Of a stretch of 46,553 nucleotides of DNA, positions 4,789-41,971 are shown in pieces. The stretch's first letter is position 1; each line of letters starts with the position of its first letter. The notes below the pieces were generated by a model. The model saw only the letters and a list, made by a program, of their open reading frames with translations. It made no database searches and was not told where the DNA came from. Both the position numbers and the translations under genes were made by a program. The DNA is from an uncultured Candidatus Saccharibacteria bacterium. Lineage in GTDB: Bacteria > Patescibacteriota > Minisyncoccia > Phycocordibacterales > UBA9973. The stretch lies in NCBI GenBank assembly GCA_964426555.1, contig CAYRQJ010000002.1, forward strand, positions 114,837-161,389, written 5' to 3'.

Positions 4789-4805
4789 TTTTATAAAAAT
4801 TATAT

Positions 4806-4836: not shown

Positions 4837-4839
4837 CTG

Positions 4840-5200: not shown

Positions 5201-5728
5201 TTATTTTTTGTAGTATTTACACCCTTTTACATGTGCTCCGGGTAGCAGACCTATGGACATTAGGAATTCATTTACTATTTCCCCGCCGGTAAATTTAAAT
5301 GTTTTCTTGAACAATTTTACCCACTCTTCTTTATTTAAATTTTTTTGTTTCAAAAGCCATTTATGAAACGAACCAGATTCTTTTTGTAAACCTATTATCA
5401 CATTGGCATTATGTATTGCCGCATCTACCTTTAATCGGTTACGGATTATGCCCGCATCGGCCAGTAGCCGTGCACGGTCAGCATCGCCATACTTTGCTAC
5501 TTTCTTAATATTAAAATTGCTATAAGCTTTTTTAAAATTCTTTTGTTTGTTTAGTATTGTATTCCAGCTTAGCCCGGCTTGATTTATCTCCAGTACTAAT
5601 CTTTCAAATAAATCATTCTCATCATTTATATCTACGCCATAAAACTGATCATGATACACACGATGTACATTATCCAGAGGTAATGTTTTTACATAATCGC
5701 AATAAGATTTTGGTTTTTCTTTTTCCAT
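5201..5728 (-). CDS. tag: DNA-3-methyladenine glycosylase I
   Basis: 175 aa; VYHDQFYGVDINDENDLFERLVLEINQAGLSWNTILNKQKNFKKAY is typical of Tag. Confidence 0.9.
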   Translation of the reverse strand: MEKEKPKSYCDYVKTLPLDNVHRVYHDQFYGVDINDENDLFERLVLEINQAGLSWNTILNKQKNFKKAYSNFNIKKVAKYGDADRARLLADAGIIRNRLKVDAAIHNANVIIGLQKESGSFHKWLLKQKNLNKEEWVKLFKKTFKFTGGEIVNEFLMSIGLLPGAHVKGCKYYKK

Positions 5729-5798
5729 TTTATTTAAAAATATTTAAACATTCGTACATTCTCAAGAATGTTGGAATGAATTATTGGTGTTTATATTA

Positions 5799-6161
5799 TT
5801 ACTGCCCTTCTACGAATTTTAATGATATTGAATTCACACAGTGGCGGGTATTTTTGTCGGTTAGCATTTCGCCCATAAATACGTGGCCCAGGTGGCCACC
5901 ACAGTTGGCGCATGTTATTTCAGTCCTACTGCCATCAGCATCGACAGTCCTTTTTACTGCACCCGCAATTTCCGCATCAAAGCTGGGCCAGCCACAGGTA
6001 GACTCAAACTTGTCTTGCGAGTTATACAGTGGCGCATTGCATTGTTTGCATACATACACACCATGGGCCGTATTATTTACATATTCACCAGTAAAAGGTA
6101 TCTCGGTGCCTTTATCCACTATTATTCTCTTTTCTTCTTCATTTAGATTATTTAGTTGCAT
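5799..6161 (-). CDS. msrB: peptide-methionine (R)-S-oxide reductase MsrB
   Basis: 120 aa; CxxC pairs, CGWPSF and GGHLGHVF motifs. Confidence 0.9.
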
Positions 6162-6164
6162 AGA

Positions 6165-6779
6165 TTAAATGATATTTTTTTCTTCACTTAATCTTTTTCT
6201 TAGTTCATCAAGAGTTTCTTCTCTATATTTCCAGTAAGCAGTACCTTGGACTCCATAATCATACCCAAGAATTTTTTGTGCTGAAGTTGAAAGACTAGTT
6301 TTTTCTCCATTAAACTCAATTGATTTATTATCTAAAACTTTGGCTTTAATATTTTCATCTCTACTAAAAACTAATTCAGTTCCAATAGGAAGATTTACCA
6401 TACCAAAATTAAACTTTTCTCTTATTTCTGAACGGACTTGATCAATTGCTTTTTTATCATCCTTATCCTCTATAAAATCTTTTCTAGGTGTTATGTCTTC
6501 TATTTCTATTAATTTCAAAAGTGATCGTACTCTTTCTGGAGAAATTATAAAAAATTCTCTTTTTGGATTAATCCTATTATCAGCAAACGTTTCATGTATT
6601 TGCTTTTCAGCAAAGAATGAATCTTTTACAGTACAAGCATAGAAACAAGTAAAAGGAAGTGGCACTCCAGTCGCGACACTGAGTTCTTTCATTCTTTGCT
6701 CAATACTGCTATTGGTTCTGCCTATTTTTACATATCCAGGCATTGCTTCGTTTGTTAACACATAGATTATTTCATTCAT
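6165..6779 (-). CDS. T5orf172 / GIY-YIG-superfamily domain protein
   Basis: N-terminus IYVLTNEAMPGYVKIGRTNSSIEQRMKEL is the T5orf172 (MUG113-like) signature. The C-terminal ~90 aa are not recognised. The stop lies only 3 nt from the msrB start. Confidence 0.7.
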   Translation of the reverse strand: MNEIIYVLTNEAMPGYVKIGRTNSSIEQRMKELSVATGVPLPFTCFYACTVKDSFFAEKQIHETFADNRINPKREFFIISPERVRSLLKLIEIEDITPRKDFIEDKDDKKAIDQVRSEIREKFNFGMVNLPIGTELVFSRDENIKAKVLDNKSIEFNGEKTSLSTSAQKILGYDYGVQGTAYWKYREETLDELRKRLSEEKNII

Positions 6780-6803
6780 AAATTTTATTATAACATAAAA
6801 TAT

Positions 6804-6828
6804 AAAAACCCCTTTAATTGGGGTTTTT
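6804..6828. terminator. bidirectional hairpin terminator
   Basis: AAAAACCCC-TTTAATT-GGGGTTTTT. Confidence 0.6.
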
Positions 6829-6927
6829 ATATGAACAAGGTATACTTGCCTGTCGCTTTTTAGGTTACCAGTAAAATTATACTGCCTATAAGCTCTAAAG
6901 TACTATGTAACTTTTGCTCAGTTTGAC

Positions 6928-7050
6928 CTATTTTCTATCTCTTCTTTGACGAAGAGCTGATCCAGCAGCAGTCTTAGAATTTTTTCCAGTACTGTTACTC
7001 CTCAACACTTTTGAAGCAGCCTTACCTGCCTTTTTCGATGTAACTGACAT
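6928..7050 (-). CDS. possible 40-aa basic small protein
   Basis: ATG 7048-7050 to TAG 6928-6930: MSVTSKKAGKAASKVLRSNSTGKNSKTAAGSALRQRRDRK. No SD. Below the track length cutoff. The hairpin at 6804-6828 follows it. Confidence 0.25.
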   Translation of the reverse strand: MSVTSKKAGKAASKVLRSNSTGKNSKTAAGSALRQRRDRK

Positions 7051-7146
7051 ATTTTTAAATATTTGTAGTTTTTTATTGAGACCGACTTTTCTCTACCACT
7101 TACTAAGTGTAACATAAATTTATATTAAAATATGGAATGGGTACAA

Positions 7147-8073
7147 TTATGAGTGCCCTATCTTTGCTTCTGGATATTCTGGGTGAGCTACTTTATATCT
7201 TGCCCAGTTGTGGGCCTCTCTTTTATTTTCTGGTATTCTCCAAATTACATAAGGTTCTTGAAGTTCCAGTCCCATAGTAAAAACCAAAATCTCCTCACAA
7301 AGATTGGATAAATTATTCCAGCCAACATCAACTAATGATAAAATATCTTGATTGTTATATGTTGGGAATATAGGTATTACTTCTCCGTTATCTACAGTAT
7401 GTTTTATTTGTGGAAGTTTATACCCGTTGTGTTCTATATCATCTCTTAATTCTTTATAGTCTCTATACCACCCATCTCTATGAGATTGTATGAATTTATA
7501 TAAGTTTTGAAATCTAGCATCAGCATTACTTAACTTAAATGCTTTCGCTCCTTTTTTAAATTTATTTTCATTATCAGTAAACAAGAAAGACATATTGTAG
7601 CCGAACCACTTATGTTGTAGTCTCAACAGTCCTTCTGTTGCCATTGTGCAACGAATAAAGAAGTCTTTAAAGAACATATTGAGTTCAATGTCGATTGGAT
7701 TATTTATGTTAAGTTGATGCCCTTGGAGAATACCATCATGTTTTTCTTTTATGGCTTTTGTGTGGTCGTGTATGTATTTAAAACAAAATTCTTTTGCAAA
7801 TTTTGCTTCAACTAAATTTTGCAACAAAGAACCATAATCCTCATCGAATTCCCCTCTTTTTTCTCTTGGTACAACAAAATCTCTTATCTCTAGATTTTGA
7901 AACATGAATCTATTGTAGAAATCATCTTCTGGTCCGGCTTTAAGTGGTCCATATAGAACACCAGCTTTTGAATCTTGGTTGTTACTTTTATTTTGTTCGT
8001 CTTTAGACATACAGCATTTTTTATATTTCAATCCGCTTCCGCAAGGACATTTTTCATTTCTATTAATTTTCAT
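7147..8073 (-). CDS. SEC-C motif protein with uncharacterised C-terminal domain
   Basis: N-terminal CPCGSGLKYKKCC (SecA-C-type zinc motif). The remaining ~270 aa are not recognised. Divergent from the LexA-methyltransferase gene. Confidence 0.7.
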   Translation of the reverse strand: MKINRNEKCPCGSGLKYKKCCMSKDEQNKSNNQDSKAGVLYGPLKAGPEDDFYNRFMFQNLEIRDFVVPREKRGEFDEDYGSLLQNLVEAKFAKEFCFKYIHDHTKAIKEKHDGILQGHQLNINNPIDIELNMFFKDFFIRCTMATEGLLRLQHKWFGYNMSFLFTDNENKFKKGAKAFKLSNADARFQNLYKFIQSHRDGWYRDYKELRDDIEHNGYKLPQIKHTVDNGEVIPIFPTYNNQDILSLVDVGWNNLSNLCEEILVFTMGLELQEPYVIWRIPENKREAHNWARYKVAHPEYPEAKIGHS

Positions 8074-8076
8074 AGT

Positions 8077-8087
8077 TGTGGATAACT
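8077..8087. promoter_or_regulatory. DnaA-box-like 11-mer TGTGGATAACT (copy 1 of 3)
   Basis: Contains the perfect DnaA-box 9-mer TGTGGATAA (TTATCCACA on the other strand). Lies in the 80-bp divergent gap 67 nt upstream of the ATG at 8154. A candidate promoter TTTACT(8091-8096)-N18-TATAAT(8115-8120) lies just downstream. Confidence 0.3.
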
Positions 8088-8153
8088 TGCTTTACTTTTC
8101 GGTTTTTGTTCGGTTATAATGTAATTGTAGCAAAAGTAGATTTTTATTGCAAT

Positions 8154-10001
8154 ATGTCAACACTAACAAAAAAACAAAAACAAGTCTTTGATTTTATAAA
8201 CACTTATATAGCCGAAAATGGTATCTCTCCTACTATGGATGAAATTAGAATAAATTTAAAATTAAAAGCAGTTTCTACTATACACGAACATATATTGTCT
8301 TTACAAAAAAAAGGTTTTTTATTTAAAGAAGTAAATTCGACAAGAGGAATTTTACCTAAAAAGGAAATAAAATCTATTATAGAAATTCCAATTCTTGGAA
8401 GAATTAAAGCTGGATATCCTCTTGAAGCAATAGAAGAAAAAGAAGGAACGATTTCTATTATAAATAATAAAATCAATTCACCAAAAGATTATTACGCTCT
8501 TAGGGTAGTTGGAGATTCCATGATAGATGACGGAATTTTTGATGGAGATATTGTGATTATAAAAAAACAGTCAACAGCTGATGATGGACAAACAGTTGTG
8601 GCTATAATTGATGAAAATGAAGCAACTCTAAAAAAAATTTATAGAGAAAAAAATCAATTTAGACTAGAACCAAGAAACCCAAATATGTTGCCTTTTTTTA
8701 GGAAAGAAGTAGAAATTAGAGGTATTGTAATTGAAATTATTAGAAATATTGAAACATCAAATATCTATAATTTAAAAAAATACAACGACTTAAAAAGTTT
8801 TTTTGATAAATTAAATTTCCAAAAAGAACATTTTGTAAATTCCAATGATATTTGTACACCAATGGGATGTGTTGAAGAAATGGTTAATATGATACCTGAA
8901 GATTTCTGGCTAACTAAAGGTTTAAAAATACTTGATCCATGTGCAGGTAATGGTAATTTTCATGCATATATTGCAACAAAAACTAATTTAAATAATTTAT
9001 ACTTCAATGAAATAAATAAAAAAAGAATTAATAATATTAAAAAAATCTTTGGTGATTCTGCAAAGATTACAGATAAGGATTTTTTACTATTTGACGAAAA
9101 AGAAGAATATGATTTAGTTGTAGCGAACCCACCTTATGCTAAATTTACAAATGGAGAAAGAACTGCCAAGAACCATAACTTATCTAGAGATTTTATACTA
9201 AAAGCTCTTAATGTTACAAAAAAAGATGGATATATTTTATTTATTGCGCCAGACAATTGGATGTCTTATGCTGATAATAATAAAATCCCGGAAATTTTAA
9301 GTAAATATCAATTTATTTATTTAAACATACATGGTGCAAAAAAATGGTTTCCTGGAGTTGGATCTTCTTTTACTTGGTTTTTGGTAAAAAAATCCCCAAA
9401 CCTTAAAAAATTTACTATATCTAACCATTATAAAATGCCACAAATTGATCAAGTATTATTAGAAAAAAATACGAAATTTATACCTCTTTATTATTCAAAT
9501 TTAGTTAAATCTATTATAAACAAAACCATAAATTCAGAAAAATTAAAATACAAAATTCAAACATCAAGTAATCTGCATAAATATACAAAAAAAGAATATT
9601 TTTCTAAAACAAAAGATTCAAAATTCAAATACAAAATACACCACACACCAAGTCAAACAATTTGGAGTAAAAGTCCACATATATATCAAAATGGGTGGAA
9701 AGTATTTATTTCTTTAACAAATCAATATAGTACTTTTATTGATGAGTGCGGAATGACACAAAGTATAGCTTTTATAAGATGTTCTTCAAAAAAAGAAGCG
9801 GAGGAAATTTCATTAAAATTAAATAATCCCGTATATTTATTTTTAAATAATATTACTAGATATGGCAATTTTAATAATATTAGAGTTTTGCAAAATTTCC
9901 CAGTGTATACAAATTTTAAATTTACAAAAGAAGAAAAAGATTTGATTAAAAAATTTAATAACCTATATTACAATAAAAATAGAGCGCGCTTATTTAACTA
10001 A
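8154..10001 (+). CDS. LexA repressor (wHTH + S24 autopeptidase) fused to a gamma-class N6-adenine DNA methyltransferase
   Basis: ATG at 8154 (the track start at 8076 is TTG). Residues 1-200 are LexA-like: LTKKQKQVFDFI...GISPTMDEI...HILSLQKKGF, cleavage context LGRIKAGYP (Ala86-Gly87), VVGDSM (Ser122) and EATLKK (Lys160). Residues ~230-615 are MTase-like: motif I ILDPCAGNGNFH and motif IV LVVANPPYA (NPPY codons from 9126). Confidence 0.8.
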   Translation: MSTLTKKQKQVFDFINTYIAENGISPTMDEIRINLKLKAVSTIHEHILSLQKKGFLFKEVNSTRGILPKKEIKSIIEIPILGRIKAGYPLEAIEEKEGTISIINNKINSPKDYYALRVVGDSMIDDGIFDGDIVIIKKQSTADDGQTVVAIIDENEATLKKIYREKNQFRLEPRNPNMLPFFRKEVEIRGIVIEIIRNIETSNIYNLKKYNDLKSFFDKLNFQKEHFVNSNDICTPMGCVEEMVNMIPEDFWLTKGLKILDPCAGNGNFHAYIATKTNLNNLYFNEINKKRINNIKKIFGDSAKITDKDFLLFDEKEEYDLVVANPPYAKFTNGERTAKNHNLSRDFILKALNVTKKDGYILFIAPDNWMSYADNNKIPEILSKYQFIYLNIHGAKKWFPGVGSSFTWFLVKKSPNLKKFTISNHYKMPQIDQVLLEKNTKFIPLYYSNLVKSIINKTINSEKLKYKIQTSSNLHKYTKKEYFSKTKDSKFKYKIHHTPSQTIWSKSPHIYQNGWKVFISLTNQYSTFIDECGMTQSIAFIRCSSKKEAEEISLKLNNPVYLFLNNITRYGNFNNIRVLQNFPVYTNFKFTKEEKDLIKKFNNLYYNKNRARLFN

Positions 10002-10495
10002 GACTGTGTACACATTATTGGTAATTTTTTTTGTTTTTTAAGTGAAGTTAATAATTTTTTTTCAAATCTTTTTGCTGGTAAGGCTATTATTTCTTCTTCT
10101 CCAAAAACATCCATTTTTATTTCTGGTGGGAAAAAACCATAAACTTTCACAATTTCATCAATTTTTAATAAACTTTGTAGCACAAAATAATTAGTAACAG
10201 AACATGTTCCTTTGTCTCTATAGGCTTTTTTACCACAATTATAAGAGCGAATTCTATCCTTAAATGAAGTTGTGGCGCTACCAATTTTTATTACTTCACC
10301 CTCCAAAACAAAAACATAGAGTATCCCTTTTTTATTAACTAAGCTGGTATTTGAATTTGAAATAATTATTTTTTCTTCTTTTTTGAAAGGTACAATATCA
10401 CATACAAACAAAAAGTGTCCTTTATGACTAAAATCTTTAAAATTCATTTGGTCAACAATATCTTTTTTACTAAGAATTATATCAGTTTTATTCAT
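9998..10495 (-). CDS. small GIY-YIG-like protein, candidate nuclease partner of the methyltransferase
   Basis: 165 aa; KKGILYVFVLEGEVIKIGSATTSFKDRIRSY fits GIY...YIG...R spacing, with a later acidic residue in RFEKKLL. Its stop overlaps the MTase stop (convergent). The function call is tentative. Confidence 0.5.
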   Translation of the reverse strand: MNKTDIILSKKDIVDQMNFKDFSHKGHFLFVCDIVPFKKEEKIIISNSNTSLVNKKGILYVFVLEGEVIKIGSATTSFKDRIRSYNCGKKAYRDKGTCSVTNYFVLQSLLKIDEIVKVYGFFPPEIKMDVFGEEEIIALPAKRFEKKLLTSLKKQKKLPIMCTQS

Positions 10496-10561
10496 GTTAT
10501 TAATCTTTAATTATAATAAACCAATCCTACCACAAAACTAGCCCAATGAGTTAACACCCAA

Positions 10562-11425
10562 TTACTCTACCGGACAGGTATTTTTGCCCATGGCTTGGTA
10601 TACAAAACACCAGCTAAAGACGGCTTGAAATACCACTACACCTGAGACAAAGATTAAAATCATGCTCCATGTTGTAAGCATCGCAATTAATAGCAAAGCT
10701 ATACCCACACCGGCGCGAATTAGGCGACCCCTTTTATTTATATTTCTTTGGCCGGTTATACCTGCGGTATTTTTGCCAAACTTTTTAAATACTAATCGCA
10801 ATACAAAACCAAATATAAATGCCAATACATACATGACCAGTATCATCCCCCAGCCAAATGGAGATTTGATAAAACCTATTGGTGAACTACCAAAAAAATC
10901 TTTTTTTAATTTTGGTATTATGGTTAGTGCATTCATTCCTTCTTTTTGGTCGAAGGCTTCAAGCTGGCCAATGGCTAGTGAATATTTACTGTCATTGTTG
11001 GGGCTGGATACTGTAATTTCATAAATACCGGCAGTAGCGCGGGATTTGTATTCGGGACCCATCCAGTATGTGTCGGCGCCAAAAGGTTCGTAAAATTTGG
11101 TCCAGGTATGTGTGGGACCCGCGAGTGTAGCGAGCGGGCCTGTGTCGCCCACTTTTACAACTGTTGCCGATACGTCTTTCTTTTGCCCAGCAATGTCTGG
11201 CACCAGTACGTTTACATACAAATCAAAATCTTTGTCGGAATTTATAACATACACATCGGGTACGCCAGCAAGCTTTGCATAATAAGCTTTAGAAATTTCG
11301 GGACTGGGCACCTGTGTTAAACGGCTTTCGGTAATGCGTGGCTGGTGAGCCAAAGCAAATACAGGTAATATTAAAATACCAAAAGCGATAATTAGGAATT
11401 TATTTATGTGAGTAATTTTTTTCAT
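10562..11425 (-). CDS. exported protein with C-terminal DUF2892 (YgaP-like) membrane domain
   Basis: Signal peptide MKKITHINKFLIIAFGILILPVFALA. The C-terminus RLIRAGVGIALLLIAMLTTW...FSWCFVYQAMGKNTCP is DUF2892-like. Confidence 0.6.
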   Translation of the reverse strand: MKKITHINKFLIIAFGILILPVFALAHQPRITESRLTQVPSPEISKAYYAKLAGVPDVYVINSDKDFDLYVNVLVPDIAGQKKDVSATVVKVGDTGPLATLAGPTHTWTKFYEPFGADTYWMGPEYKSRATAGIYEITVSSPNNDSKYSLAIGQLEAFDQKEGMNALTIIPKLKKDFFGSSPIGFIKSPFGWGMILVMYVLAFIFGFVLRLVFKKFGKNTAGITGQRNINKRGRLIRAGVGIALLLIAMLTTWSMILIFVSGVVVFQAVFSWCFVYQAMGKNTCPVE

Positions 11426-12587: not shown

Positions 12588-13421
12588 CTAACTTCTAAAA
12601 TCTTTTAATGCTTTACTAATATCGTTACCATTATTTTTTAAAAGCTTTACGGCGTCAGCATAAGAAAGTTTTGTTTTTTCCATAACAGTACGGATTCCAC
12701 GCTGAACCAGCTTGTCGTTACTTAACTTCATATGGGTCATTTTATTGCCTTCTACACGGCCAATTTTTATCATGGCTGTGGTTGTGATCATGTTTAAAAT
12801 TAGCTTTTGAGCTGTTCCTGATTTCATTCGTGTACTACCAGTAATAAATTCTGGACCAACTATAGTTTCCACAGGATAATTTGAATTTTTAGCAACCACA
12901 CTGTTTTTACTACATACAATACAGCCTGTGGTTATGCCCCGCTGCTGGCATTTTTGCAAAGCCCCCAGTACATACGGAGTGCGCCCGCTGGCAGTAATAC
13001 CAATTACAATATCTTTTTTATTAATTTTGTATTTTGTTAAATCTTTAAAACCAGCCGTTAAACTATCTTCAGCTTTTTCTACTGATGTACGAATAGCACC
13101 ATCTCCGCCAGCAATAAGGCCAACTACCATACCATGTGGCACACCGTATGTAGGTGGGCATTCGCTGGCATCAACTATACCCAGTCTACCGCTGGTACCA
13201 GACCCAACATAAAAAATACGCCCGTTGTTTTGCAAAGCTTCCACACATTTTTCCGCAAGCTTTTTTATTTGAGGTAAAGATTTTTTTACTGAGGTAGCTA
13301 CTGTTTGATCTTCTTTATTTATATTAGTTAAAATTTCAATAACACTCATTTTTTCAATGTTGTTATAGTTAGAATCTTTTTCGGTAGATATTTGAGTTAA
13401 ATCAATTTTACTTTTATTCAT
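12588..13421 (-). CDS. murQ: N-acetylmuramic acid 6-phosphate etherase
   Basis: 277 aa SIS-domain protein; GRIFYVGSGTSGRLGIVDASECPPTYGV and GITASGRTPYV are typical of MurQ. Confidence 0.85.
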   Translation of the reverse strand: MNKSKIDLTQISTEKDSNYNNIEKMSVIEILTNINKEDQTVATSVKKSLPQIKKLAEKCVEALQNNGRIFYVGSGTSGRLGIVDASECPPTYGVPHGMVVGLIAGGDGAIRTSVEKAEDSLTAGFKDLTKYKINKKDIVIGITASGRTPYVLGALQKCQQRGITTGCIVCSKNSVVAKNSNYPVETIVGPEFITGSTRMKSGTAQKLILNMITTTAMIKIGRVEGNKMTHMKLSNDKLVQRGIRTVMEKTKLSYADAVKLLKNNGNDISKALKDFRS

Positions 13422-14864: not shown

Positions 14865-15818
14865 CTACTTGTCCCAATTAAAATTATTTCCATAGTGCCC
14901 CCATGTACATGTATCAGTAAATTTTACATTCTTTAAATTTAAAAATTCTCTTATTCCAGATGGAGACAAATCATAATCGGTAATTTCAATAGTCTTTTCT
15001 AGATTATTTTTATCTACTATTACTGCTTGCGCCATTACGGGTTCGGCTTTACCAATAGCATAAGCTAATTTTACAAATACATGCTGTGTATTATATTTTT
15101 GTAAATAGTCTACTGCAATTTTGCGTGCCATATATGCCCCACTACGGTCTACTTTTGTATAATCTTTACCACTGTATGACCCACCACCAATAGAGATTTC
15201 TGGACCATAGTTGTCGACTATTAGTTTGCGTCCTGAAAGACCAGTGTCTGCATCGAACCCGCCCATAGACCACTCTCCAGCGGGATTGATTAAATATTCT
15301 TGCGCTGGGATTATAGTTTTTACCAAATCTAGTAGCTCTGCACTATTTGAATTTTGGAAACTGGCAACTACAGTTTTGACACTGCCGTCGTCATTTATTG
15401 TAACCTGAGTTTTACCATCGTATGGGTACACTGCATAAATCTTGCGACACAAATTACGAGCTAATTCGTATTCCAATGGAACAAAATTGGACGTACTAGA
15501 CGTTGCATAGCCACACATGATGCCTTGGTCTCCGGCGCCACCAGTATCAACCCCACGAGCAATTTCAGGGCTTTGCAAAGCAATATTTGAGATAACTCGA
15601 TAATCTATACCTACAATATTTTGTACAATACTTTCTATGTTTATATTTGCACTACTGGTAACTTCACCATTTATAGTTACAAGATTGTGTCCACCCATTA
15701 CTTCTACAGCAACACGGCTATTCAAGTCTTCGGCTAAATACGCATCTAAAATAGAATCTGCAATATAGTCACAAATTTTATCTGGATGTAGAGGGCTTAC
15801 AAATTCTGCTGTTTTCAT
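14865..15818 (-). CDS. metK: S-adenosylmethionine synthetase
   Basis: Start moved to the ATG at 15816-15818 (MKTAEFVSPLHPDKICDYIADSILD). GAGDQGIMCGYA motif present. The track's 51-codon N-terminal extension runs through the riboswitch. Confidence 0.85.
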   Translation of the reverse strand: MKTAEFVSPLHPDKICDYIADSILDAYLAEDLNSRVAVEVMGGHNLVTINGEVTSSANINIESIVQNIVGIDYRVISNIALQSPEIARGVDTGGAGDQGIMCGYATSSTSNFVPLEYELARNLCRKIYAVYPYDGKTQVTINDDGSVKTVVASFQNSNSAELLDLVKTIIPAQEYLINPAGEWSMGGFDADTGLSGRKLIVDNYGPEISIGGGSYSGKDYTKVDRSGAYMARKIAVDYLQKYNTQHVFVKLAYAIGKAEPVMAQAVIVDKNNLEKTIEITDYDLSPSGIREFLNLKNVKFTDTCTWGHYGNNFNWDK

Positions 15819-15861
15819 ATTATTACTTGAACGAACATTTTTAAAAAATGTTTTAGTTATT

Positions 15862-15997
15862 AAAAAATTCCTCTTAATGAGGAAAGATAGAGAGTACAAT
15901 ATCTTTCCGAAATAACGGTTTGGAATTAGCACCTTTGCAAAAGCCAGGTTGCTGTGGGGTCTATGAGCCAAATCTCTACCACCACTCTTGATACAAT
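15862..15997 (-). promoter_or_regulatory. SAM-I (S-box) riboswitch with terminator, in the metK leader
   Basis: Minus strand: UAUCAAGAGUGGUGGUAGAGAUUUGGCUCAUAGACCCCACAGCAACC...AAGGUGCUAAUUCCAAACCGUUAUUUCGGAAAGAUA matches the SAM-I core. Followed by TTCCTC-ATTAA-GAGGAA plus T6 (15862-15884). Confidence 0.8.
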
Positions 15998-18635: not shown

Positions 18636-20072
18636 CTACTTTAGCAAATCTATTAAAACTTCTTTGGCCATTTGAGGGTTTGCAGATCCGCCAGATTCTT
18701 TCATGATTTTACCAACTAGAGACATGATGGCATTTTCTTTACCAGACTTATATGAAGCTACTACATCTGGAGATTCGTCTATCAATTTTTGTGCAAGATT
18801 TTTTAATGCTTCAGGGTCATTTTTTTGTATTATGTTGTTAGCTTCGGCGTATGCACGAGGAGACTGCGGGTCTTTAACCATTACAGCTAAAATATCTTTT
18901 GCTCCACGTGAAGATAATTCCCCACCTACTGTCATGCTAATAAGCTCCGCAAAATCTTCGGGCGTTGGTAGTAATGCATCTACATCGTTTTTCATAATAC
19001 CTGCAAGGTCTGACGTAATATAGTTAGCAATTGTTTGGTAAGCATCTTTGTTTTCAACTTTTGAAACTACTGCTTCAAAGAAATCGCCTATTACAAGATC
19101 TTGAACAAATAATTCAATATCACTGTCTTTAATTCCAAATTCATTTTTATAGCGGTCTCTTTTTTGCCAAGGTAATTCTGGTAAATTATTTTTTACCAAA
19201 TCCAGGTCATACATTGAATGCAAAAATAGTTTTGGTAAATCTGGTTCTGGGAAATAGCGATAATCTTCCGCGTTTTCTTTACTACGCTGTGAGACAGTGA
19301 TTTGTTTGTTTTCGTCCCAACCACGAGTTTCTTTGATTATTTCGTCTTGTTTACCAGCGTCCCATAGTGCAGTCATTCTTTTGATTTCGTATTCGGCAGC
19401 ACGTTTGGCAGCTTGGAAAGAATTGATATTTTTTACTTCTACATATTTTGGCCACATTTTATCAGCATCAGGAGAAATAGAAACATTTACTTCTACACGC
19501 ATTTGACCACGTTCCATATTTGCATCACTGGCTCCCAATGTGCGCAGCAGTAATTGTAATTCTTTTGCAAAACCAACTATTTCTTCGGGATCTTTTATAA
19601 CTGGTTCGGTAACAAGTTCCATTAGTGGTACACCTGCACGGTTGTAGTTTACTAAAGAAAAATTACCCTGATCATGTGAACTGGTTGCTGTATCTTCTTC
19701 TAAATGAATACGAGTGATTTTAATACCACCAAGTTCTCCTCCAGACACAATCGGGTATTTATATTGAGAGATTTGATAAGCTTTGGGAATATCTGGATAA
19801 AAATAATTTTTACGGTCAAATTCGGTAAAGTCTGCAATGTCGGCATTAATAGCCAGCCCAATACGCACCATATGGTCCACAGCGGCGCGGTTTAGTACTG
19901 GCAATGTTCCAGGTTGTGCAGTACATACTGGGCAAATATTTGTATTTGGCTTTGGTTCAGGAACACCATCTGGGAGCGCTGTTACATTTGCACAACTACA
20001 AAAAGCTTTAGAATTTGTCTTTAATTCAGCATGAATTTCTAGCCCAATTGTTACATAGTATTTATTGTCCAT
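18636..20072 (-). CDS. gatB: Asp-tRNA(Asn)/Glu-tRNA(Gln) amidotransferase subunit B
   Basis: 478 aa; IGLEIHAELKT...KAFCSC and C-terminal YqeY-like domain. Confidence 0.9.
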   Translation of the reverse strand: MDNKYYVTIGLEIHAELKTNSKAFCSCANVTALPDGVPEPKPNTNICPVCTAQPGTLPVLNRAAVDHMVRIGLAINADIADFTEFDRKNYFYPDIPKAYQISQYKYPIVSGGELGGIKITRIHLEEDTATSSHDQGNFSLVNYNRAGVPLMELVTEPVIKDPEEIVGFAKELQLLLRTLGASDANMERGQMRVEVNVSISPDADKMWPKYVEVKNINSFQAAKRAAEYEIKRMTALWDAGKQDEIIKETRGWDENKQITVSQRSKENAEDYRYFPEPDLPKLFLHSMYDLDLVKNNLPELPWQKRDRYKNEFGIKDSDIELFVQDLVIGDFFEAVVSKVENKDAYQTIANYITSDLAGIMKNDVDALLPTPEDFAELISMTVGGELSSRGAKDILAVMVKDPQSPRAYAEANNIIQKNDPEALKNLAQKLIDESPDVVASYKSGKENAIMSLVGKIMKESGGSANPQMAKEVLIDLLK

Positions 20073-21111: not shown

Positions 21112-21975
21112 TTAGTTTTCTATTATTTTAGTAATTCCTGGTAATGGGTGAGACAATGCTTCTACTGCAAAACCAGCTGCATTGTGGTGGCCACCACCGC
21201 CATATTTGCCTGCAATTGCAGACACGTCTACGCTACCATCTCCACGCAAAGAGCATTTCCAGCCCCATTTTTCGTAATTAAAGATTAAAGCAAATGGACC
21301 ATGTTTAGAAGACAGTAAATGACCCAAATCGCTGGCTACTATATTATTAGCATTTACAGCATAAATTGTATAGCCTTCAAATTCTACAAGCTCAGCTTTG
21401 TTGGCAAAATATTCAACTTGTCTTTCATGGACACTGCGTAGTAGTGTACCTTGTTCTAATATTTTTAAATACCCATCTTCGGTTTCTAAATCTTTTGCAA
21501 TTTTAGAATATACAGCAAAATCAAAATTTGAAACATGAATATAAGCAATTATTGATTTTGCATCCAGTAGAGAAAATCGATACAAATCACCATCTTCAAT
21601 ATATTCGATTAATTTTGGTATTTTTTCATTTGGGAAAAAATATTCCCAAGCTAAATATGCTGCACTATGGTCGTTGTTAAAAACATGTTCATTTATAGAA
21701 GTTACATTATCGCGAGCAGAAATATGGTGATCAATTATTACTAATTTTTTTGCCTTTTGTTCTAAATCTAATAAAACATCTTTAGGGTAAGAATAATCAA
21801 TAATGTAAACTGTTTTACCGTCTAAATTGACATGGTAATGGTCTCGATCTTCCGCAGGAATATACGACGCACTGTCTCCAAATTTTTGATATGCAACCCA
21901 AGCACCAGCAAATCCATCACTGCATTTTGCGTGATAAATTACTACGATATCTGTTGTTATAATTAAGGAATCCAT
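21112..21975 (-). CDS. DHH/DHHA1 family phosphoesterase
   Basis: IYHAKCSDGFAGAW, IIDHH and GGGGHHNAAGF motifs. Confidence 0.8.
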   Translation of the reverse strand: MDSLIITTDIVVIYHAKCSDGFAGAWVAYQKFGDSASYIPAEDRDHYHVNLDGKTVYIIDYSYPKDVLLDLEQKAKKLVIIDHHISARDNVTSINEHVFNNDHSAAYLAWEYFFPNEKIPKLIEYIEDGDLYRFSLLDAKSIIAYIHVSNFDFAVYSKIAKDLETEDGYLKILEQGTLLRSVHERQVEYFANKAELVEFEGYTIYAVNANNIVASDLGHLLSSKHGPFALIFNYEKWGWKCSLRGDGSVDVSAIAGKYGGGGHHNAAGFAVEALSHPLPGITKIIEN

Positions 21976-22092
21976 CCCGTTAGAAACAGATCGCGATCAA
22001 TTCACGATTTTGTTTTATTATATTTATAATTTTATTTTTATTTAAATTCATATTTCTATTTTTATATTATTGCGATCGCGGTTTCTAACGGG
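21976..22092. repeat. palindromic intergenic element, long copy 1
   Basis: CCCGTTAGAAAC-AGATCGCGATC ... GCGATCGCG-GTTTCTAACGGG; AT-rich interior. Abuts the ATG at 21975. Confidence 0.8.
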
Positions 22093-22100
22093 ACCAATTA

Positions 22101-23703: not shown

Positions 23704-24138
23704 TTAATATCCGCGCCAGTAAGAATACATATTGTTGTTAGTATATCCGCCATATGTTGGATATGCATAATAATCATTGTATCCATAATTATTGTAGTTT
23801 CCGTAACCATAGTTGTTATAGTTTCCGTAACCATAGTTATTGTAATTATTATAACCATAGTTGCTATAACTACCAGAACCATAGTTATTGTAGTTACCGT
23901 AACCGTAGCTATTATTACCGTATCCATAACCGTAGTCGTCGTAACCACCATAACCATAGTCATCATATCCATAACCATAGTCGTCGTAACCACCATAGTT
24001 TGAACTATAAGAACCATAGCCACCACCAAAACCAAGACTTATACTAAACGCATCTGCATTTTTAGTAGCACTAAAGAATGCAATAAATGCAAAACTGGCG
24101 ATAATTAAAGTTTTTACTATATACTTATTCATGACCAT
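23704..24138 (-). CDS. secreted Gly/Tyr/Asn-rich low-complexity repeat protein
   Basis: Signal peptide (..KTLIIASFAFIAFFSATKNADA) followed by about 110 aa of GYG/NNY/DDYGYG repeats. The likely true start is the ATG at 24132 (leaderless). Confidence 0.7.
   Translation of the reverse strand: MVMNKYIVKTLIIASFAFIAFFSATKNADAFSISLGFGGGYGSYSSNYGGYDDYGYGYDDYGYGGYDDYGYGYGNNSYGYGNYNNYGSGSYSNYGYNNYNNYGYGNYNNYGYGNYNNYGYNDYYAYPTYGGYTNNNMYSYWRGY
23760..24020. repeat. degenerate short tandem repeats encoding the GYN-rich region
   Basis: Reiterated units such as GTTTCCGTAACCATAGTT. These produce the spurious overlapping ORFs 23691-24035 and 23754-24047. Confidence 0.6.
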
Positions 24139-29537: not shown

Positions 29538-30287
29538 TTATACTGTATTAATTGGCTCACATATTATATCACCATAATTCTGATTTTGCTCTGCATCCAT
29601 TAGACCACCTCGAACTAATTCTAAAACTGCAAGGAAACTAACAATTACAGATACTTTCATTTCTTTAGGAGTCATTTCTTTGAAATATACAGACTGTGCT
29701 AAAGAATTAAAAGATGTAGCCTGTTTTACTGATTTTAAATTATTTGTGATTTTAGTAATCATTTCTTCCAGTGTCATTACACGCAGAATTTGAATTTTGG
29801 GTAATTTTTCTTTATCGACAGGTAGTTTGTTTATGACTTCGTTTGCAATATTTAAAAGATTTTCTATGTTTACATCAGCATGTGGAATAAAACTGACTGT
29901 ATTTATATTTTTTCTTTTAACAAATTCTAAATAAGGTGAAGGTTTTGAATTTAAATAACTATTTGATCCATTGCGAAGCATTTCCAATAATCGTAATCTT
30001 TCTTCTAGATTATTTTTTGCAGAGTCTACTTCTTCGTCTGCAATACTGCTACCGTCCAGCAACATTTTTGATTTTAGTAATACCAATGTTGCAGCAATAG
30101 ACAAAAACAAAGTTACATTGGGTAAATCTTCTCCAATGTGGTCTTGGACATAAGCTACATATTCGTCGGTAACTTCGGCTAACGATACGTCGCTAATATG
30201 CAGTTTTCTTTTTTCTACAAGCGAAAGCAAGACATCAAGCGGTCCTTCAAATTTCTCTGTTTTAACTTGATAAATTGTTTCGTCCAT
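29538..30287 (-). CDS. scpA: segregation and condensation protein A
   Basis: FEGPLDVLLSLVEKRKLHISDVSLAEVTDEY. Confidence 0.85.
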   Translation of the reverse strand: MDETIYQVKTEKFEGPLDVLLSLVEKRKLHISDVSLAEVTDEYVAYVQDHIGEDLPNVTLFLSIAATLVLLKSKMLLDGSSIADEEVDSAKNNLEERLRLLEMLRNGSNSYLNSKPSPYLEFVKRKNINTVSFIPHADVNIENLLNIANEVINKLPVDKEKLPKIQILRVMTLEEMITKITNNLKSVKQATSFNSLAQSVYFKEMTPKEMKVSVIVSFLAVLELVRGGLMDAEQNQNYGDIICEPINTV

Positions 30288-30405
30288 CCCGTTAGAAGCA
30301 GATCGCGATCAAATCACAACCTAATTTACTAATATTTATAATTTTATTTTTATTTAAAAACATATATTCATTAAAATTTCTATTGCGATCGCGGCTTCTA
30401 ACGGG
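30288..30405. repeat. palindromic intergenic element, long copy 2
   Basis: CCCGTTAGAAGC-AGATCGCGATC ... GCGATCGCG-GCTTCTAACGGG. Shares interior blocks with copy 1. Abuts the scpA ATG at 30287. Confidence 0.8.
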
Positions 30406-30414
30406 ATCCATCTT

Positions 30415-31755
30415 CTACTCACTAAGTCTTTTATCGATACGGTTAATGTCTCTTGGGAACAACGTTGCTTCTTTGATATTTGGAATATTTAAGAATCGTG
30501 CAGTTAATCTTTCTAGCCCCATAGCCAGTCCACCATGTGGCGGTAAGCCATATTTAAAAGCTTGAAGATAAAAATCAAATTTTTCTGGATCTAGACCTTT
30601 GAATTTCATTTTTTCTACAAGTTCTTCGTAGCGGTGTTCACGTTGGTTACCACTGAGTAATTCTAAGCCTCGGAATAATAAGTCGTAACATTTTGTACGG
30701 CCAGGAACAGCATCGTCGTCCATTGCGTAAAATGGTCTTTTAGTACGAGGATAGTTTGTGATAAATATAAAATCAGAATTAAATTCTTTCTTTGCGTATT
30801 CACATAGCCAGCGTTCATGCTCAGGTTCTAAATCCGGTTCTTGTGTACAGTCTACGCCGGTAACTTTAGAAATTAATTCCTGAGCTTCAGTTAATTTCAT
30901 AGTTGGAAAAATTTCACCTTGTGGCATTAGCGGGAATTCTGCACCAAGAATTGCAAATTCTGGGCTACATTTTTCTTTTAGTTCGTTTAAAATGTAGCGT
31001 AGTAAATTTGTTTCCAATTTCATAACATCTTCTGGACCATCAATAAATCCCATTTCTAGATCAAGAGATGTGTATTCGTTAAGATGTCTTGTTGTTGCGT
31101 GTTTTTCAGCACGGAAAACGTTGGTAACTGTGTAAGCACGTTCAAATACACCCACCATCATTTGCTTGTACAATTGTGGACTAGTAGCCAAGTACGCTGT
31201 TTTGTCGTAAAAATAATCCAGTTTAAAAGTTTCGGTACCGCCTTCGGCATCGCCACCAACAAGAGCTGGCGCCCGAAATTCGGTAAAATCTTCTTTATTT
31301 AGAAAGTTACGAAAAGATTCTAAAATAGTTGCTTGAACTTTAAAAATTGCATTTTCTCTTTTTCGGCGTAGTGTTAACGGACGATAATCTAAAAGAGTAT
31401 CTAAATTTAATTCTGCATCATTTGAAAAAGGTAATTCTTGAGATTTAGATAATACTGTAATACCAGTAACTTCTAATTCCACATCACCACCAACAATGTT
31501 GGGGTTGATGTTTTTTTCAGGTCTTTTGTTTACTATACCAGTGACACTTAGAACCCATTCAGGACGAATGTCTTTAGCTACGTCTAGTGCTTCTGTATGG
31601 TTTGGTAAGACTACACATTGCAGTATCCCAGACATGTCGCGCAGGTCGAAGAAAACCATTTTGCCTTGGTCACGTCGAATGTTGACCCAACCAGCCATGG
31701 TTACGGTATTCCCAACATTTTCACTTATATTCTTAACTAAAATTCTTCCTTTCAT
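30415..31755 (-). CDS. aspS: aspartate--tRNA ligase, archaeal/type-2 (probably non-discriminating)
   Basis: Start at the ATG 31753-31755 (MKGRILVKNISE). Class IIb motifs FRAEKHATTRHLNEYTSLDLEM and GGLAMGLERL. gatB is present in the window. Confidence 0.8.
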   Translation of the reverse strand: MKGRILVKNISENVGNTVTMAGWVNIRRDQGKMVFFDLRDMSGILQCVVLPNHTEALDVAKDIRPEWVLSVTGIVNKRPEKNINPNIVGGDVELEVTGITVLSKSQELPFSNDAELNLDTLLDYRPLTLRRKRENAIFKVQATILESFRNFLNKEDFTEFRAPALVGGDAEGGTETFKLDYFYDKTAYLATSPQLYKQMMVGVFERAYTVTNVFRAEKHATTRHLNEYTSLDLEMGFIDGPEDVMKLETNLLRYILNELKEKCSPEFAILGAEFPLMPQGEIFPTMKLTEAQELISKVTGVDCTQEPDLEPEHERWLCEYAKKEFNSDFIFITNYPRTKRPFYAMDDDAVPGRTKCYDLLFRGLELLSGNQREHRYEELVEKMKFKGLDPEKFDFYLQAFKYGLPPHGGLAMGLERLTARFLNIPNIKEATLFPRDINRIDKRLSE

Positions 31756-31777
31756 ATAAAGACATATTAACATAAAT

Positions 31778-31821
31778 CCCATTAGAAGTTTAGCTTTATA
31801 TAAAAAACTACTTCTAACGGG
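31778..31821. repeat. mini copy of the palindromic element (arms only)
   Basis: CCCATTAGAAGT-N20-ACTTCTAACGGG. On the minus-strand RNA the single arm mismatch becomes a G-U pair. Confidence 0.65.
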
Positions 31822-31846: not shown

Positions 31847-31895
31847 CCGCGTTAGAGGCAGAGATTCTTTATGATTCTCGTTGGCTCTAATGGGG
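31847..31895. repeat. degenerate relative of the palindromic element
   Basis: CCGCGTTAGAGGC ... GCTCTAATGGGG hairpin, 1 nt from the stop of the 31897-32157 gene. Confidence 0.5.
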
Positions 31896-31896: not shown

Positions 31897-32157
31897 TTAA
31901 TGCATGCTATTGTGAAAAGTTTCAAACAATTTAGATAAAGGTATAACAATTGCGTACAACGGGTAAATAATTACACAAGATAAATAGTACATTAATGGGT
32001 CTTTATCTTTTAACCCTAGATTTATCTTTTGTAGCCACATAAAGAATAATTGCAGTGGTAAATACAATACCCCAAAAAATACATGCAAAACCTTGCGCCC
32101 CGCTGGCACAATTAGAAAAAGTAAAATTATTACAAATACATATATCCAATTTGACAT
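31897..32157 (-). CDS. small integral membrane protein
   Basis: 86 aa with 2-3 hydrophobic helices. No family recognised. Confidence 0.5.
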   Translation of the reverse strand: MSNWIYVFVIILLFLIVPAGRKVLHVFFGVLYLPLQLFFMWLQKINLGLKDKDPLMYYLSCVIIYPLYAIVIPLSKLFETFHNSMH

Positions 32158-37182: not shown

Positions 37183-37458
37183 TTACTTACTAAATTTTGT
37201 TAAGACTTTACGGAAGCCGCCTTTTTTATCACCCAGTTCTTTAGCACCTCGGGTAACAGTGGCTACACCTACACCCAGTTTCTCTGCAATGTCGCGTTGG
37301 GCATATCCAGCTTCTAGCATTTTTATAATTTGCCAACGACGAGCTATTTCTTCGTATTCGCCAGTGGTTAAAATATCATCCAAGAAATCGTTCAGCAATG
37401 TTCCACTTGCAGCGACTTTGCGAATCATACTGATTAATTCCTTTTTTTGTTCATCCAT
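37183..37458 (-). CDS. TrpR-family (YerC/YecD-like) DNA-binding protein
   Basis: 91 aa; EYEEIARRWQIIKMLEAGYAQRDIAEKLGVGVATVTRGAKEL is typical of the TrpR/YerC family. Confidence 0.8.
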   Translation of the reverse strand: MDEQKKELISMIRKVAASGTLLNDFLDDILTTGEYEEIARRWQIIKMLEAGYAQRDIAEKLGVGVATVTRGAKELGDKKGGFRKVLTKFSK

Positions 37459-41200: not shown

Positions 41201-41761
41201 TTAAAATTTAAATACTACAACTTTTGCTGGGCGTAGAACGCTGTCTTTTGTACGGTAACCTTTTTGACTAACGCTAGAAATTTTTCCGTCCATGTTTTCA
41301 TCTTCTGTTTGTACTGTCTCTACTGCATCATGTAAATTATGGTCTACATCGCTCCCTATATTCGGGTTAATAATTTCTACACCATTGTCTTGCAGAAATT
41401 GAATACCTTGCTGGTAAATATATTCCACTCCCATGCGCCAGTTTGCGTCTACATTATTCCAAGCATCGTTGTTAGCCATTGCCATATCAAAAGTATCTAG
41501 CATTTTTATAACGCCACCTGCTCCACGTTCAAACCCAATAGCACGAGACCGCGCAAGGCGAGATTCTTCGTCTTTTTTGTAGTTTAAAAAGTCAGCTCTT
41601 TCTCTTTGCCAATTTAGTAAATATTCTTCTTTTTCTTCTTTTAGTTTTTCTATTTTGTCTTTAGATTTGGCTAATTTAGATTCACCACTAAGACTGTTCC
41701 CGCCCGAATTTTCTTCGTCGGCTACAAATTCTACATCGTCAAAATTCTCATCTTGTGTCAT
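41201..41761 (-). CDS. grpE: nucleotide exchange factor GrpE
   Basis: 186 aa; acidic N-terminus, coiled coil, WQRERADFLNYKKD and C-terminal beta domain GYR..D.VLRPAKV. Confidence 0.85.
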   Translation of the reverse strand: MTQDENFDDVEFVADEENSGGNSLSGESKLAKSKDKIEKLKEEKEEYLLNWQRERADFLNYKKDEESRLARSRAIGFERGAGGVIKMLDTFDMAMANNDAWNNVDANWRMGVEYIYQQGIQFLQDNGVEIINPNIGSDVDHNLHDAVETVQTEDENMDGKISSVSQKGYRTKDSVLRPAKVVVFKF

Positions 41762-41877
41762 CCCGTTAGAAGCAGGTCGCGATCTATTTTTTATAGAGCG
41801 TTTCCGTACTTGATTAATATACTACTAAATCTGTAATTCGCCCGTTATTGAATACCGTGACCGCGGCTTCTAACGGG
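41762..41877. repeat. palindromic intergenic element, long copy 3
   Basis: CCCGTTAGAAGC-AGGTCGCGATC ... GTGACCGCG-GCTTCTAACGGG. Interior unrelated to copies 1 and 2. Abuts the grpE ATG at 41761. Confidence 0.75.
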
Positions 41878-41971
41878 ACATATACTGCTATTATACTGAT
41901 TTTTGATAAAAAGAAAACCGCCACAACAACCTCTCTCTTATCTCTCCTGACCAGGAGAGAAGATTAAAGAT

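Follow-up and report, generated by a model that had tools for sequence, protein, structure and literature searches.

A probable MITE-like palindromic element that rebuilds start codons at its insertion sites in Patescibacteria

How can a palindrome of nearly 120 nt come to lie directly against the start codon of a gene, at the most sensitive base that the gene possesses? The question is raised by a stretch of 46,553 nt from an uncultured Candidatus Saccharibacteria bacterium (GenBank assembly GCA_964426555.1, contig CAYRQJ010000002.1, positions 114,837 to 161,389 of the forward strand), which we refer to as the window. Its minus strand carries three long palindromic elements of 116–118 nt, each of the form CCCGTTAGAA...TTCTAACGGG, at the starts of a DHH-family gene, of scpA and of grpE. 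Our results suggest that these three repeats are probably copies of a non-autonomous mobile element resembling MITEs (miniature inverted-repeat transposable elements), which rebuilds the start codons that it strikes and owes its position to survivorship combined with a preference for TGRR targets (R, purine; Y, pyrimidine).

On the coding strand, the junctions read CTAACGGG/ATGGATTCC at the DHH-family gene, CTAACGGG/ATGGACGAA at scpA and CTAACGGG/ATGACACAA at grpE (slashes mark junctions throughout), with the A of the ATG at 21975, 30287 and 41761, respectively (minus strand). The spacer between the 3' end of the element and the ATG is zero in all three cases, and the junction letters are exactly those reported in a first-pass annotation of this DNA. 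These ATGs open long open reading frames (ORFs) at 21112–21975 (DHH), 29538–30287 (scpA) and 41201–41761 (grpE). Pfam assigned DHHA1 and GrpE to two of the three downstream ORFs, and the identity of ScpA is supported by homologues and syntenic annotation. The 21-nt arm of the element occurs three times in the window and was absent from 100 shuffles. The three long copies can be aligned over their full length, and each folds end to end into a hairpin with a z-score between −4.4 and −5.8. The identity of copies 1 and 2 (84%) indicates amplification within the genome. Two short members are also present (31821–31778 and 31894–31848), neither of which is flush with a start codon; in the first case, 22 nt separate the element from the real aspS start (31755) downstream of it, and it is for that reason not flush. 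The components of the five copies are listed below.

21971..21975, minus strand: copy 1, closing A (base 1 of the DHH/DHHA1 start codon) and TGGA.
21976..22092, minus strand: copy 1, core of 117 nt, with 84% identity to copy 2.
22093..22098, minus strand: copy 1, closing T (22093) and upstream duplicate ATTGG, read as decayed (expected ATGGA); the upstream ATG is lost, and the empty site is TTAGTA/ATGGAA in the relatives L121, L123 and L125.
30283..30287, minus strand: copy 2, closing A (30287, base 1 of the scpA start codon) and downstream TGGA (30286–30283).
30288..30405, minus strand: copy 2, core of 118 nt (CCCGTTAGAAGCCGCGATCGC ... GATCGCGATCTGCTTCTAACGGG), with the geometry of subfamily A.
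30406..30410, minus strand: copy 2, closing T (30406) and upstream duplicate TGGA (30410–30407).
31778..31821, minus strand: short member of 44 nt (CCCGTTAGAAGT...ACTTCTAATGGG), in the terminator T-tract before the aspS promoter.
31848..31894, minus strand: degenerate member of 47 nt (CCCCATTAGAG...CTCTAACGCGG), between direct TTAAT repeats overlapping the TAA stop of ORF 31897–32157.
41757..41761, minus strand: copy 3, closing A (base 1 of the grpE start codon) and TGAC.
41762..41877, minus strand: copy 3, core of 116 nt, with 65% identity to copies 1 and 2.
41878..41895, minus strand: copy 3, upstream side with closing T (41878), shifted ATG (41881–41879), predicted transcript start A (41883) and TATAAT (41895–41890).

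We analyzed the flanks of these copies for traces of insertion. The upstream flanks of copies 1, 2 and 3 read AATTGGT, AAGATGGAT and TATATGT, and in all three a T that can pair with the A of the ATG precedes CCCG. Copy 2 is the only one in the window with a clean duplication in the canonical register (ATGGA-T ... A-TGGA); an A at 30411 completes an upstream ATG that has been kept, and the aspS stop codon TAG lies at 30417–30415. The TGG and ATG shared by the two flanks of copies 1 and 3, respectively, are out of register and, taken alone, at chance level. We read the upstream flanks of both copies as decayed duplications (ATGGAT to ATTGGT and ATGACT to ATATGT) in which the old ATG was destroyed or shifted.

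The search was extended to one genome per species with a pattern of two exact 10-mers, the termini of the element, spaced by 85–115 nt, and matches were obtained at no fewer than 120 loci (at least; loci are designated L001 and so on). The counts given below over 132 elements and 82 start-codon copies are among the matches listed. An ATG or GTG opening an ORF of at least 60 codons is found at offset 0 in 82 of the 132 elements, and 8 further elements present a start codon at offset +2. When the copies are oriented by the downstream gene, the family follows the rule N-TGNN-Y/CCCG...CGGG/R-TGNN. Among the 82 start-codon copies, 55 have an in-register duplication of 4 bp; its length is 3 bp in another 6 copies, 5 bp in 4 others and 2 bp in a further 3, and it is unrecognizable in 14. 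Two of the duplicated bases do not belong to the start codon. Both agree between the flanks in 59 of the 82 copies, whereas shuffling gave 29.9 on average and at most 44 over 10,000 trials. The association with start codons and the flank repeats, first noticed on the three window copies, were thereby recovered across the family. The first-pass annotation had described the repeats as a 3–5-bp duplication centred on the initiation codon; this applies at the level of the family (mostly 4 bp, with a range of 2–5), and copies 1 and 3 considered alone do not rise above chance.

The same annotation had proposed that the A of the ATG extends the stem. In agreement with this, the closing bases Y and R are complementary in all 82 copies (T with A in 62, C with G in 20). 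The duplicated unit is TGNN and the closing bases are the element's own. Since the closing bases derive from the element and TG is duplicated, the working start codon is chimeric, with its R supplied by the element and its TG by the duplication. Elements closed by C and G have left ATGAAC upstream and created a GTG downstream, and an A is found at their first upstream flank base in 14 of 20 cases (the ATGNNC pattern). One copy in three no longer has its upstream ATG. Insertion duplicates about 4 bp of the target. At an A/TGNN target, the upstream copy retains the old ATGNN, and the last base of the element (A or G) forms, with the downstream TG, a new ATG or GTG flush with the element. In this manner, the element shows how mobile DNA can occupy the most sensitive base of a gene without being lethal: TG(NN) is duplicated and the missing first base of the start codon is supplied, and at ATGA overlaps both the stop and the start survive.

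To examine sites without the element, we collected syntenic relatives through homologues of ScpA, whose ScpA identity to the window is 93% for L121 and L122 and 61–67% for L123–L125 and L128–L132. In a metagenome scan, a single ScpA protein used as query gave no match, and relatives were obtained when a ScpA alignment was used. The DHH junction is empty in L121, L123 and L125 (TTAGTA/ATGGAA and similar), the scpA junction in L123, L125, L128, L129, L131 and L132, and the grpE junction in L121 (TATAATAGCAGT/ATGACA), L123 and L132. At each of these empty sites, the ATG aligns with the one found at the 3' end of the element. It had been predicted from the window that removing the element of copy 2 plus one repeat would restore a normal junction between aspS and scpA, and the junctions of relatives match this prediction; the check was made at all three sites. 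A second pair of filled and empty sites was found at scpA, where L130 is filled and L129 is empty with about 95% identity downstream of the junction and 91% upstream. Conversely, an element is present at the start of an ABC-transporter gene in L129 and L130 and at the start of an 86-aa ORF in L132, and both sites are empty in the window. The leaderless grpE promoter found upstream of copy 3 is present uninterrupted in L121. The two short hairpins before aspS are insertions in the stop-codon/terminator region, absent from L121 and L123. Finally, L121 presents an 8-nt remnant at about 9993–10000 (TTAACGGG, the 3' end of the element) between the aspS stop codon and the scpA ATG, which looks like an imprecise deletion that was forced to spare the start codon.

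Gene callers misplace starts at such sites. The mechanical start of the aspS ORF (30415–31782) is an ATG created in the short hairpin (31782), whereas homologues start at 31755, so that aspS reads 455 aa in the window instead of 446. The GrpE of L121 (2642–3328), which lies at an empty site, was called with 228 aa instead of about 186, and the start of L15 was misplaced in the gene call of L092.

The family is distributed overwhelmingly among Patescibacteria. The matches listed comprise Saccharibacteria, Paceibacteria, Kaiser-, Nomura-, Kazan- and Berkelbacteria, with a minority of Omnitrophota, Planctomycetota and Desulfobacterota; by a rough estimate, chance would yield about 17 matches for a 20-base palindromic pattern in 596 Gb. 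In the wider family, the length ranges from 24 to 135 bp. The interiors belong to several unrelated subfamilies and the terminal 10-mers are constant, hardly varying even between very distant lineages. An exact 10-mer is hardly ever solitary: nearly all are in inverted pairs with flanking duplications. We also searched 809 kb of Patescibacteria DNA that had been fetched through ScpA, and was in this respect not selected for the element, while allowing up to 2 mismatches. Of the 11 true members detected, 10 carry the exact 10-mer and one is a compensated variant (GAG...CTC). In viral contigs, the pattern matched only twice (L126 6554–6671 and L127 8692–8809); both matches are GC-rich, lack a flanking duplication and were judged unrelated or due to chance.

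These properties are those of a MITE. The elements are short and non-coding, with no consistent reading frame inside them, and their terminal inverted repeats form 13 perfectly paired terminal base pairs followed by an inner helix of 6 bp. They are flanked by an in-register duplication, which is 4 bp long in most start-codon copies as given above. They are also multi-copy, with three long and two short copies in the 46-kb window, and they vary in presence and absence among relatives. Several loci of the wider family are worth describing. L092 carries four copies in 8 kb (326–434, 2265–2343, 5341–5450 and 6263–6372). In L002, L038, L051, L058, L096, L111, L118 and other loci outside Patescibacteria, the same termini are flanked by GTAAAC on both sides, a duplication of TAAA. 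Several elements in loci of Desulfobacterota, Planctomycetota and Omnitrophota lie on the TAA stop codon of a long ORF, and short hairpins are nested or in tandem. L096 contains an additional, unrelated hairpin (CCGCC...GGCGG) between GTTTAC repeats.

We further analyzed the gene starts of the host. The three genes preceded by a long copy had been reported to lack a Shine–Dalgarno (SD) sequence, which is correct. The observation is not specific to these genes, as an SD was found for only one of about 55 genes of the window, in the form of a GGAGG flush before ORF 37183–37458. Genes internal to operons are preceded by AT-rich sequence in the window, and many first genes present TGnTATAAT 6–7 nt before the ATG (e.g., ORFs 479–877, 2871–3851, 6165–6779, 12588–13421, 18636–20072 and 31897–32157), which makes these first genes look leaderless. 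The missing SD is a genome-wide property and is not caused by the element. Across the family, a strong −10 box was found for 20 of the 82 start-codon copies, and the distance from this box to the A of the upstream duplicate shows a sharp peak at 6 nt, which places the element just inside the transcript. About 50 of the 82 copies are internal to operons, and in 12–14 of these the TGA stop codon of the upstream gene lies within the upstream duplicate: the element has split an ATGA overlap and, owing to the duplication, neither the TGA nor the RTG is lost. In 6 copies, the upstream ORF now stops at the TAG of the conserved CGTTAG. The copies of L092 are located between S5, L15 and SecY of the ribosomal-protein operon, those at 326–434 and 2265–2343 flanking SecY and L15; S5 of this locus appears to end at the TAG inside the CGTTAG of the element. 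Because the host lacks SD sequences and its genes look leaderless or coupled, nothing upstream of the ATG would need to stay adjacent to it. These Patescibacteria appear to rely on leaderless and coupled translation, and they tolerate, even in the ribosomal-protein/secY operon, a helix of about 20 bp that ends at the start codon.

Are start codons targeted, or are they the sites at which insertions survive? The first-pass annotation had offered these as alternatives, and both seem to contribute, so that a strict either/or does not hold. The duplicated 4-mers of the 82 copies are TGAA in 47 cases, TGGA in 12 and TGAG in 11, which amounts to TGRR in 70 of 82. By our own count, TGAA, TGGA and TGAG account for only roughly half of the gene starts of the window, and a sequence preference of the element is therefore indicated. 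Targets other than start codons were also found: stop codons (TAAA), −35 boxes (TTGAC), where the downstream copy rebuilds TTGACA, and the GTAAAC sites of lineages outside Patescibacteria. Of the ATGRR sites in the window, 27 are start codons, 47 lie elsewhere in intergenic DNA and 331 fall in coding sequence; if only coding insertions were purged, about 36% of copies would be expected at start codons. In the sample collected independently of flanks, 9 of 11 members are flush with real starts (nominal binomial p ~0.003, some copies being orthologous), and the remaining two are flush with an ATT or ATA that opens an scpB frame. We take the position at start codons to reflect preference plus selection. 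A preference for TGRR would draw insertions toward start codons, and copies splitting coding sequence would be lost. A third factor is likely, namely that a copy at a start codon escapes the sloppy deletions that remove palindromes elsewhere. Such a copy could be removed only by precise excision, and it would for this reason persist in streamlined genomes. The two scpB members just mentioned are orthologous and 48 nt long (L179 778–825 and L188 5295–5342); the ATT and ATA open frames of 178–180 codons, which may represent non-AUG initiation at the foot of the helix.

Active targeting of initiation sites without a role for survivorship, through recognition of ATG-RR in start context or of melted DNA at leaderless promoters, is possible, and we consider it the less probable explanation. 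It would account for the excess of real starts in the sample just described, for the sharp −10 spacing to the upstream duplicate and for the fact that the scpA start was struck in separate lineages (the window, L130 and the remnant of L121). It is difficult to reconcile with the start-codon copies that are internal to operons and lack a promoter, with the members on stop codons, −35 boxes and GTAAAC sites, and with the two short window copies away from start codons; moreover, resistance to deletion at start codons could yield an equal enrichment.

The pairing of the stem is itself conserved. We analyzed 42 copies of subfamily A, to which the window's own elements belong, at 19 pairs of two helices. 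Stem cells are paired in 98% of cases, against 36–45% in slid controls. Changes on both sides were observed at 7 pairs, and such values were not attained in any of 500 shuffles. Subfamily A also keeps an asymmetric internal loop (5' CGC, 3' U); a K-turn at this position was rejected by inspection, as there are no tandem G–A pairs. Unpaired or wobble cells comprise 9 G–U and 13 A–C, a balance compatible with selection at the level of either DNA or RNA; the wobble pairs give no support to selection on the sense RNA. Subfamily A presents a single orientation relative to the gene (38:0), and subfamilies B and C are found in both orientations (roughly 9:4 and 11:5, from inspection and motif rules). 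Copy 3 is 86% identical to the element at the grpE site of L125, although ScpA is only 66% identical between the two, and they differ by a compensatory change from GAAG/CTTC to GAGG/CCTC. With this difference in identity, the grpE copy would be either old and conserved or transferred.

What moves the element? We infer mobilization by a transposase. We looked for a cognate autonomous insertion sequence (IS) with the same termini in the window, in fetched loci totalling about 1.8 Mb and in collections of plasmids and phages, and found none. Searches of the fetched loci for pairs of termini at long range with matching duplications, and for partners of solo ends, yielded none that was convincing. 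The ORFs located beside clusters of elements were only housekeeping genes according to Pfam and NCBIfam, and clustering the 479 ORFs of the loci (at least 120) revealed no transposase-like multi-copy protein. A lead comes from the termini: ends starting with CC(C) and a 4–5-bp duplication of a T..A-type target recall IS1380 and piggyBac, the piggyBac end being TTAA/CCCTAGAAAG and that of the present family T(G/A)AA/(Y)CCCGTTAGAA. The ends of the element, (Y)CCCG, and its mostly 4-bp duplication are compatible with this type; duplications of 2–3 bp also occur, and members of 24 nt are far below the usual repeat requirement. No transposase of the piggyBac/IS1380 type is found near the present elements. 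Excision of piggyBac is described as seamless in a passage of PMC7351741, and excision of this type would fit the clean empty grpE site of L121.

Several observations weigh against the MITE-like reading proposed here. Scans with Pfam and NCBIfam revealed no transposase or autonomous partner among the window proteins, no mobilizing enzyme was found in about 1 Mb of element-bearing loci, and a BLAST search of copy 2 against plasmids and phages returned no match. Both the variable length of the duplication (2–5 bp) and the existence of members of only 24 nt are unusual for a DDE transposase. The 38:0 bias of subfamily A is unexpected from symmetric cut-and-paste and requires additional selection or a strand-specific mechanism. 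The reconstruction at L130 is imperfect, with 2 extra bases, and the upstream duplicates of copies 1 and 3 deviate from the prediction by 2–3 bases. Only 15 of 57 upstream frames extend as far as the downstream start, and sense-strand wobble is not favoured by the 9 G–U against 13 A–C cells.

The variable duplication, the 24-nt members and the bias of subfamily A keep alive a different mechanism, in which an HUH/Y1 enzyme moves the hairpin as a single strand of DNA and inserts it beside a short motif in a strand-specific way, in the manner of repetitive extragenic palindromes and their doublets (REP/REPIN) with REP-associated tyrosine transposases (RAYT), or of IS200/IS605 and palindrome-associated transposable elements (PATE); the apparent duplication would then be part of the mechanism. 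This is rather improbable. The fixed orientation relative to an asymmetric target and gene, functional units as small as a hairpin of 24–31 nt, pairing conserved beyond sequence and the failure to find a DDE transposase in the window or the fetched loci all agree with it, and the equal frequency of G–U and A–C mismatches fits either DNA strand or a duplex. On the other hand, the flanking 4-mers vary between copies and yet match within a copy, which defines a true duplication of a kind not made by IS200/IS605 or REP elements. A GTAG-type tetranucleotide is lacking, neither a Y1 transposase nor a RAYT was found among the window proteins, and subfamilies B and C occur in both orientations. An assignment to REP/REPIN-RAYT or to an IS200/IS605 hairpin was rejected for the copy-variable duplication, the missing GTAG and the lack of a Y1_Tnp match among the window proteins. 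A further possibility is that the elements are mainly conserved cis-regulatory RNAs (acting, for instance, as an RNase III switch or by occluding the start like a thermosensor), with mobility secondary or ancient. We give it little credence as well, even though the grpE copy is well conserved, its AT-rich interior included, with a compensatory pair change, across lineages that differ far more in ScpA. The stem covaries, the orientation of subfamily A is fixed, and the scpB copies were kept in the orthologous pairs L146/L189 and L179/L188. Against such a primary function, the downstream genes are functionally unrelated (DHH, scpA, grpE, an ABC transporter, ftsW, ribosomal proteins and secY), copies were gained or lost between close relatives, the interiors fall into several unrelated subfamilies, no Rfam match was found and sense-strand wobble pairs are not favoured. 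A role of the 10-mer as a DNA-uptake signal, or as another protein-recognition signal, with the hairpins as by-products, is the most remote of these explanations. The DNA uptake sequences (DUS) of Neisseria often occur in inverted pairs, the 10-mer is nearly invariant over distant lineages whose interiors differ, and it matches GCCGTCTGAA at 7 of 10 positions. Genes for type IV pili are also the commonest protein clusters in element-bearing loci. Yet exact 10-mers are almost never single and come in inverted pairs with flanking duplications, and an uptake signal leaves both the duplications and the empty sites unexplained. Regarding these genes (PilB, PilC, PilM and PilT-like), they form the largest protein clusters among the loci (L001 and seven others), which may simply reflect their commonness in these genomes.

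A mobile element that rebuilds start codons remains the explanation that we favour, and its consequences at the RNA level can be outlined, as occlusion of the start, RNase III processing, coupling or shunting across the base of the helix. The insert would be co-transcribed and, at leaderless genes, would begin at about +6. Pairing from the first to the last base would juxtapose the upstream duplicate and the rebuilt RUG in an RNA helix. In a leaderless mRNA, this duplicate would be the AUG at the 5' end, and at an AUGA overlap it would be the UGA. The start codon would be freed when a ribosome melts the conserved outer stem, either on loading at the 5' AUG or on terminating, whether at the duplicated UGA or no more than 12 nt from the foot of the helix. 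In another version, RNase III may cut the helix (about 20 bp), as it is reported to cleave transcripts bearing the Correia elements of Neisseria at their repeats (PMC10969869). The upstream frame runs to a TAA located 7 nt before the start, or to an overlapping TGA, in 15 of 57 cases, against 3 of 57 for a control frame. This signal of coupling is suggestive and not general, and an obligatory coupling of the upstream frame to the downstream start was rejected on the same count. In-frame translation of the element was also rejected, as lengths are not multiples of three and most upstream frames meet internal stops. A role of the 3' arm as an outward promoter or as an SD was rejected by inspection, given poor spacing and hexamers in a genome that lacks SDs. 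It is conceivable, though doubtful, that the element evolved translational transparency in SD-less bacteria, the helix looping out the 120-nt insert while ribosomes at its foot transfer across and initiate; this would constitute a prokaryotic counterpart of ribosome shunting or of initiator-tRNA hopping. Some loci, grpE among them, may have recruited the helix for regulation. These observations raise the questions of how an AUG is recognized at the foot of a long helix in bacteria without SD sequences and of what mobilizes such a family in a transposon-poor radiation.

We compared the element to known systems, of which the closest kind is the bacterial MITE and, functionally, the Correia element (CREE/NEMIS) of Neisseria. 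Correia elements are also palindromic MITEs of about 100–150 bp with long terminal inverted repeats and many copies beside genes, and they are co-transcribed, their repeats forming a long RNA hairpin (co-transcription would be shared by the present element). To our knowledge, no cognate transposase is known for them either. The termini are unrelated (CCCGTTAGAA here, compared with the 26-bp Correia repeat). Correia elements duplicate TA where the present family duplicates about 4 bp of TGNN; they do not abut start codons and donate no base to them, and their hosts use SD sequences. An identity with Correia elements was rejected on the basis of the duplication and the termini. Bypass and shunt elements (T4 gene 60, the byps of Magnusiomyces mitochondria and the 35S leader of cauliflower mosaic virus, CaMV) combine a compact hairpin with matched take-off and landing sequences. 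The matched sequences of byps arose as the duplication made when a mobile hairpin inserted, and the CaMV shunt involves a short upstream ORF that terminates at the helix foot, initiation resuming just beyond. Bypass elements act at an internal codon, whereas the present site is the initiation codon, where a crossing by ribosomes is only proposed; in addition, the upstream ATG has been lost in part of the present copies. REP/REPIN-RAYT systems resemble the present family by their short extragenic palindromes, their longer hairpin doublets, their many copies between genes of operons and their conserved pairing. They differ by making no duplication and by possessing a GTAG-type 5' tetranucleotide and a linked RAYT gene, none of which applies here. 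An integron attC site was rejected, because the order of its motifs is inverted on both strands (GTTAGAA first and TTCTAAC last), the copies are dispersed at housekeeping genes and the window contains no integrase. An intrinsic terminator was rejected as well: the helix is followed directly by the ATG and coding sequence, and a terminator scan flags only the true terminator of S9 (41997–41972). Rickettsia palindromic elements (RPEs) are small mobile palindromes that survive at or in genes of reduced genomes with gene function kept (PMC10969869). The present element likewise leaves the gene functional in a reduced genome. It differs in that RPEs are translated in frame as an extra peptide, whereas the present element, whose lengths are not multiples of three, lies outside the reading frame and exactly at its first base.

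A full-text search of the literature for both 10-mers returned only chance matches to primers. We found no description in the literature of the start-codon-regenerating geometry, of the splitting of ATGA overlaps, of the link to leaderless or SD-less genes or of the spread in Patescibacteria. Start codons and leaderless genes are unmentioned in a 2024 review of prokaryotic MITEs (PMC10969869). A scan of the window with Rfam 15 at gathering thresholds detected only tRNAs and an S-adenosylmethionine (SAM) riboswitch, and a permissive scan added only generic miRNA-hairpin noise (E ≥ 0.08).

Other features of the window lie apart from the elements. An island of accessory genes extends over about 1400–11000, with a Fic/RhuM protein (2871–3851), a T5orf172/GIY-YIG-like protein (6165–6779), a SEC-C-motif protein (7147–8073) and an ORF combining LexA/S24 and Eco57I-type methylase domains (8076–10001); several ORFs of this island have no family match. 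Tandem repeats of 24 nt occupy 23747–24019 within ORF 23704–24138 (minus strand), which has no Pfam match. The SAM riboswitch (15896–15997, minus strand, 58 bits) is located directly upstream of the gene for S-adenosylmethionine synthetase (14865–15971).

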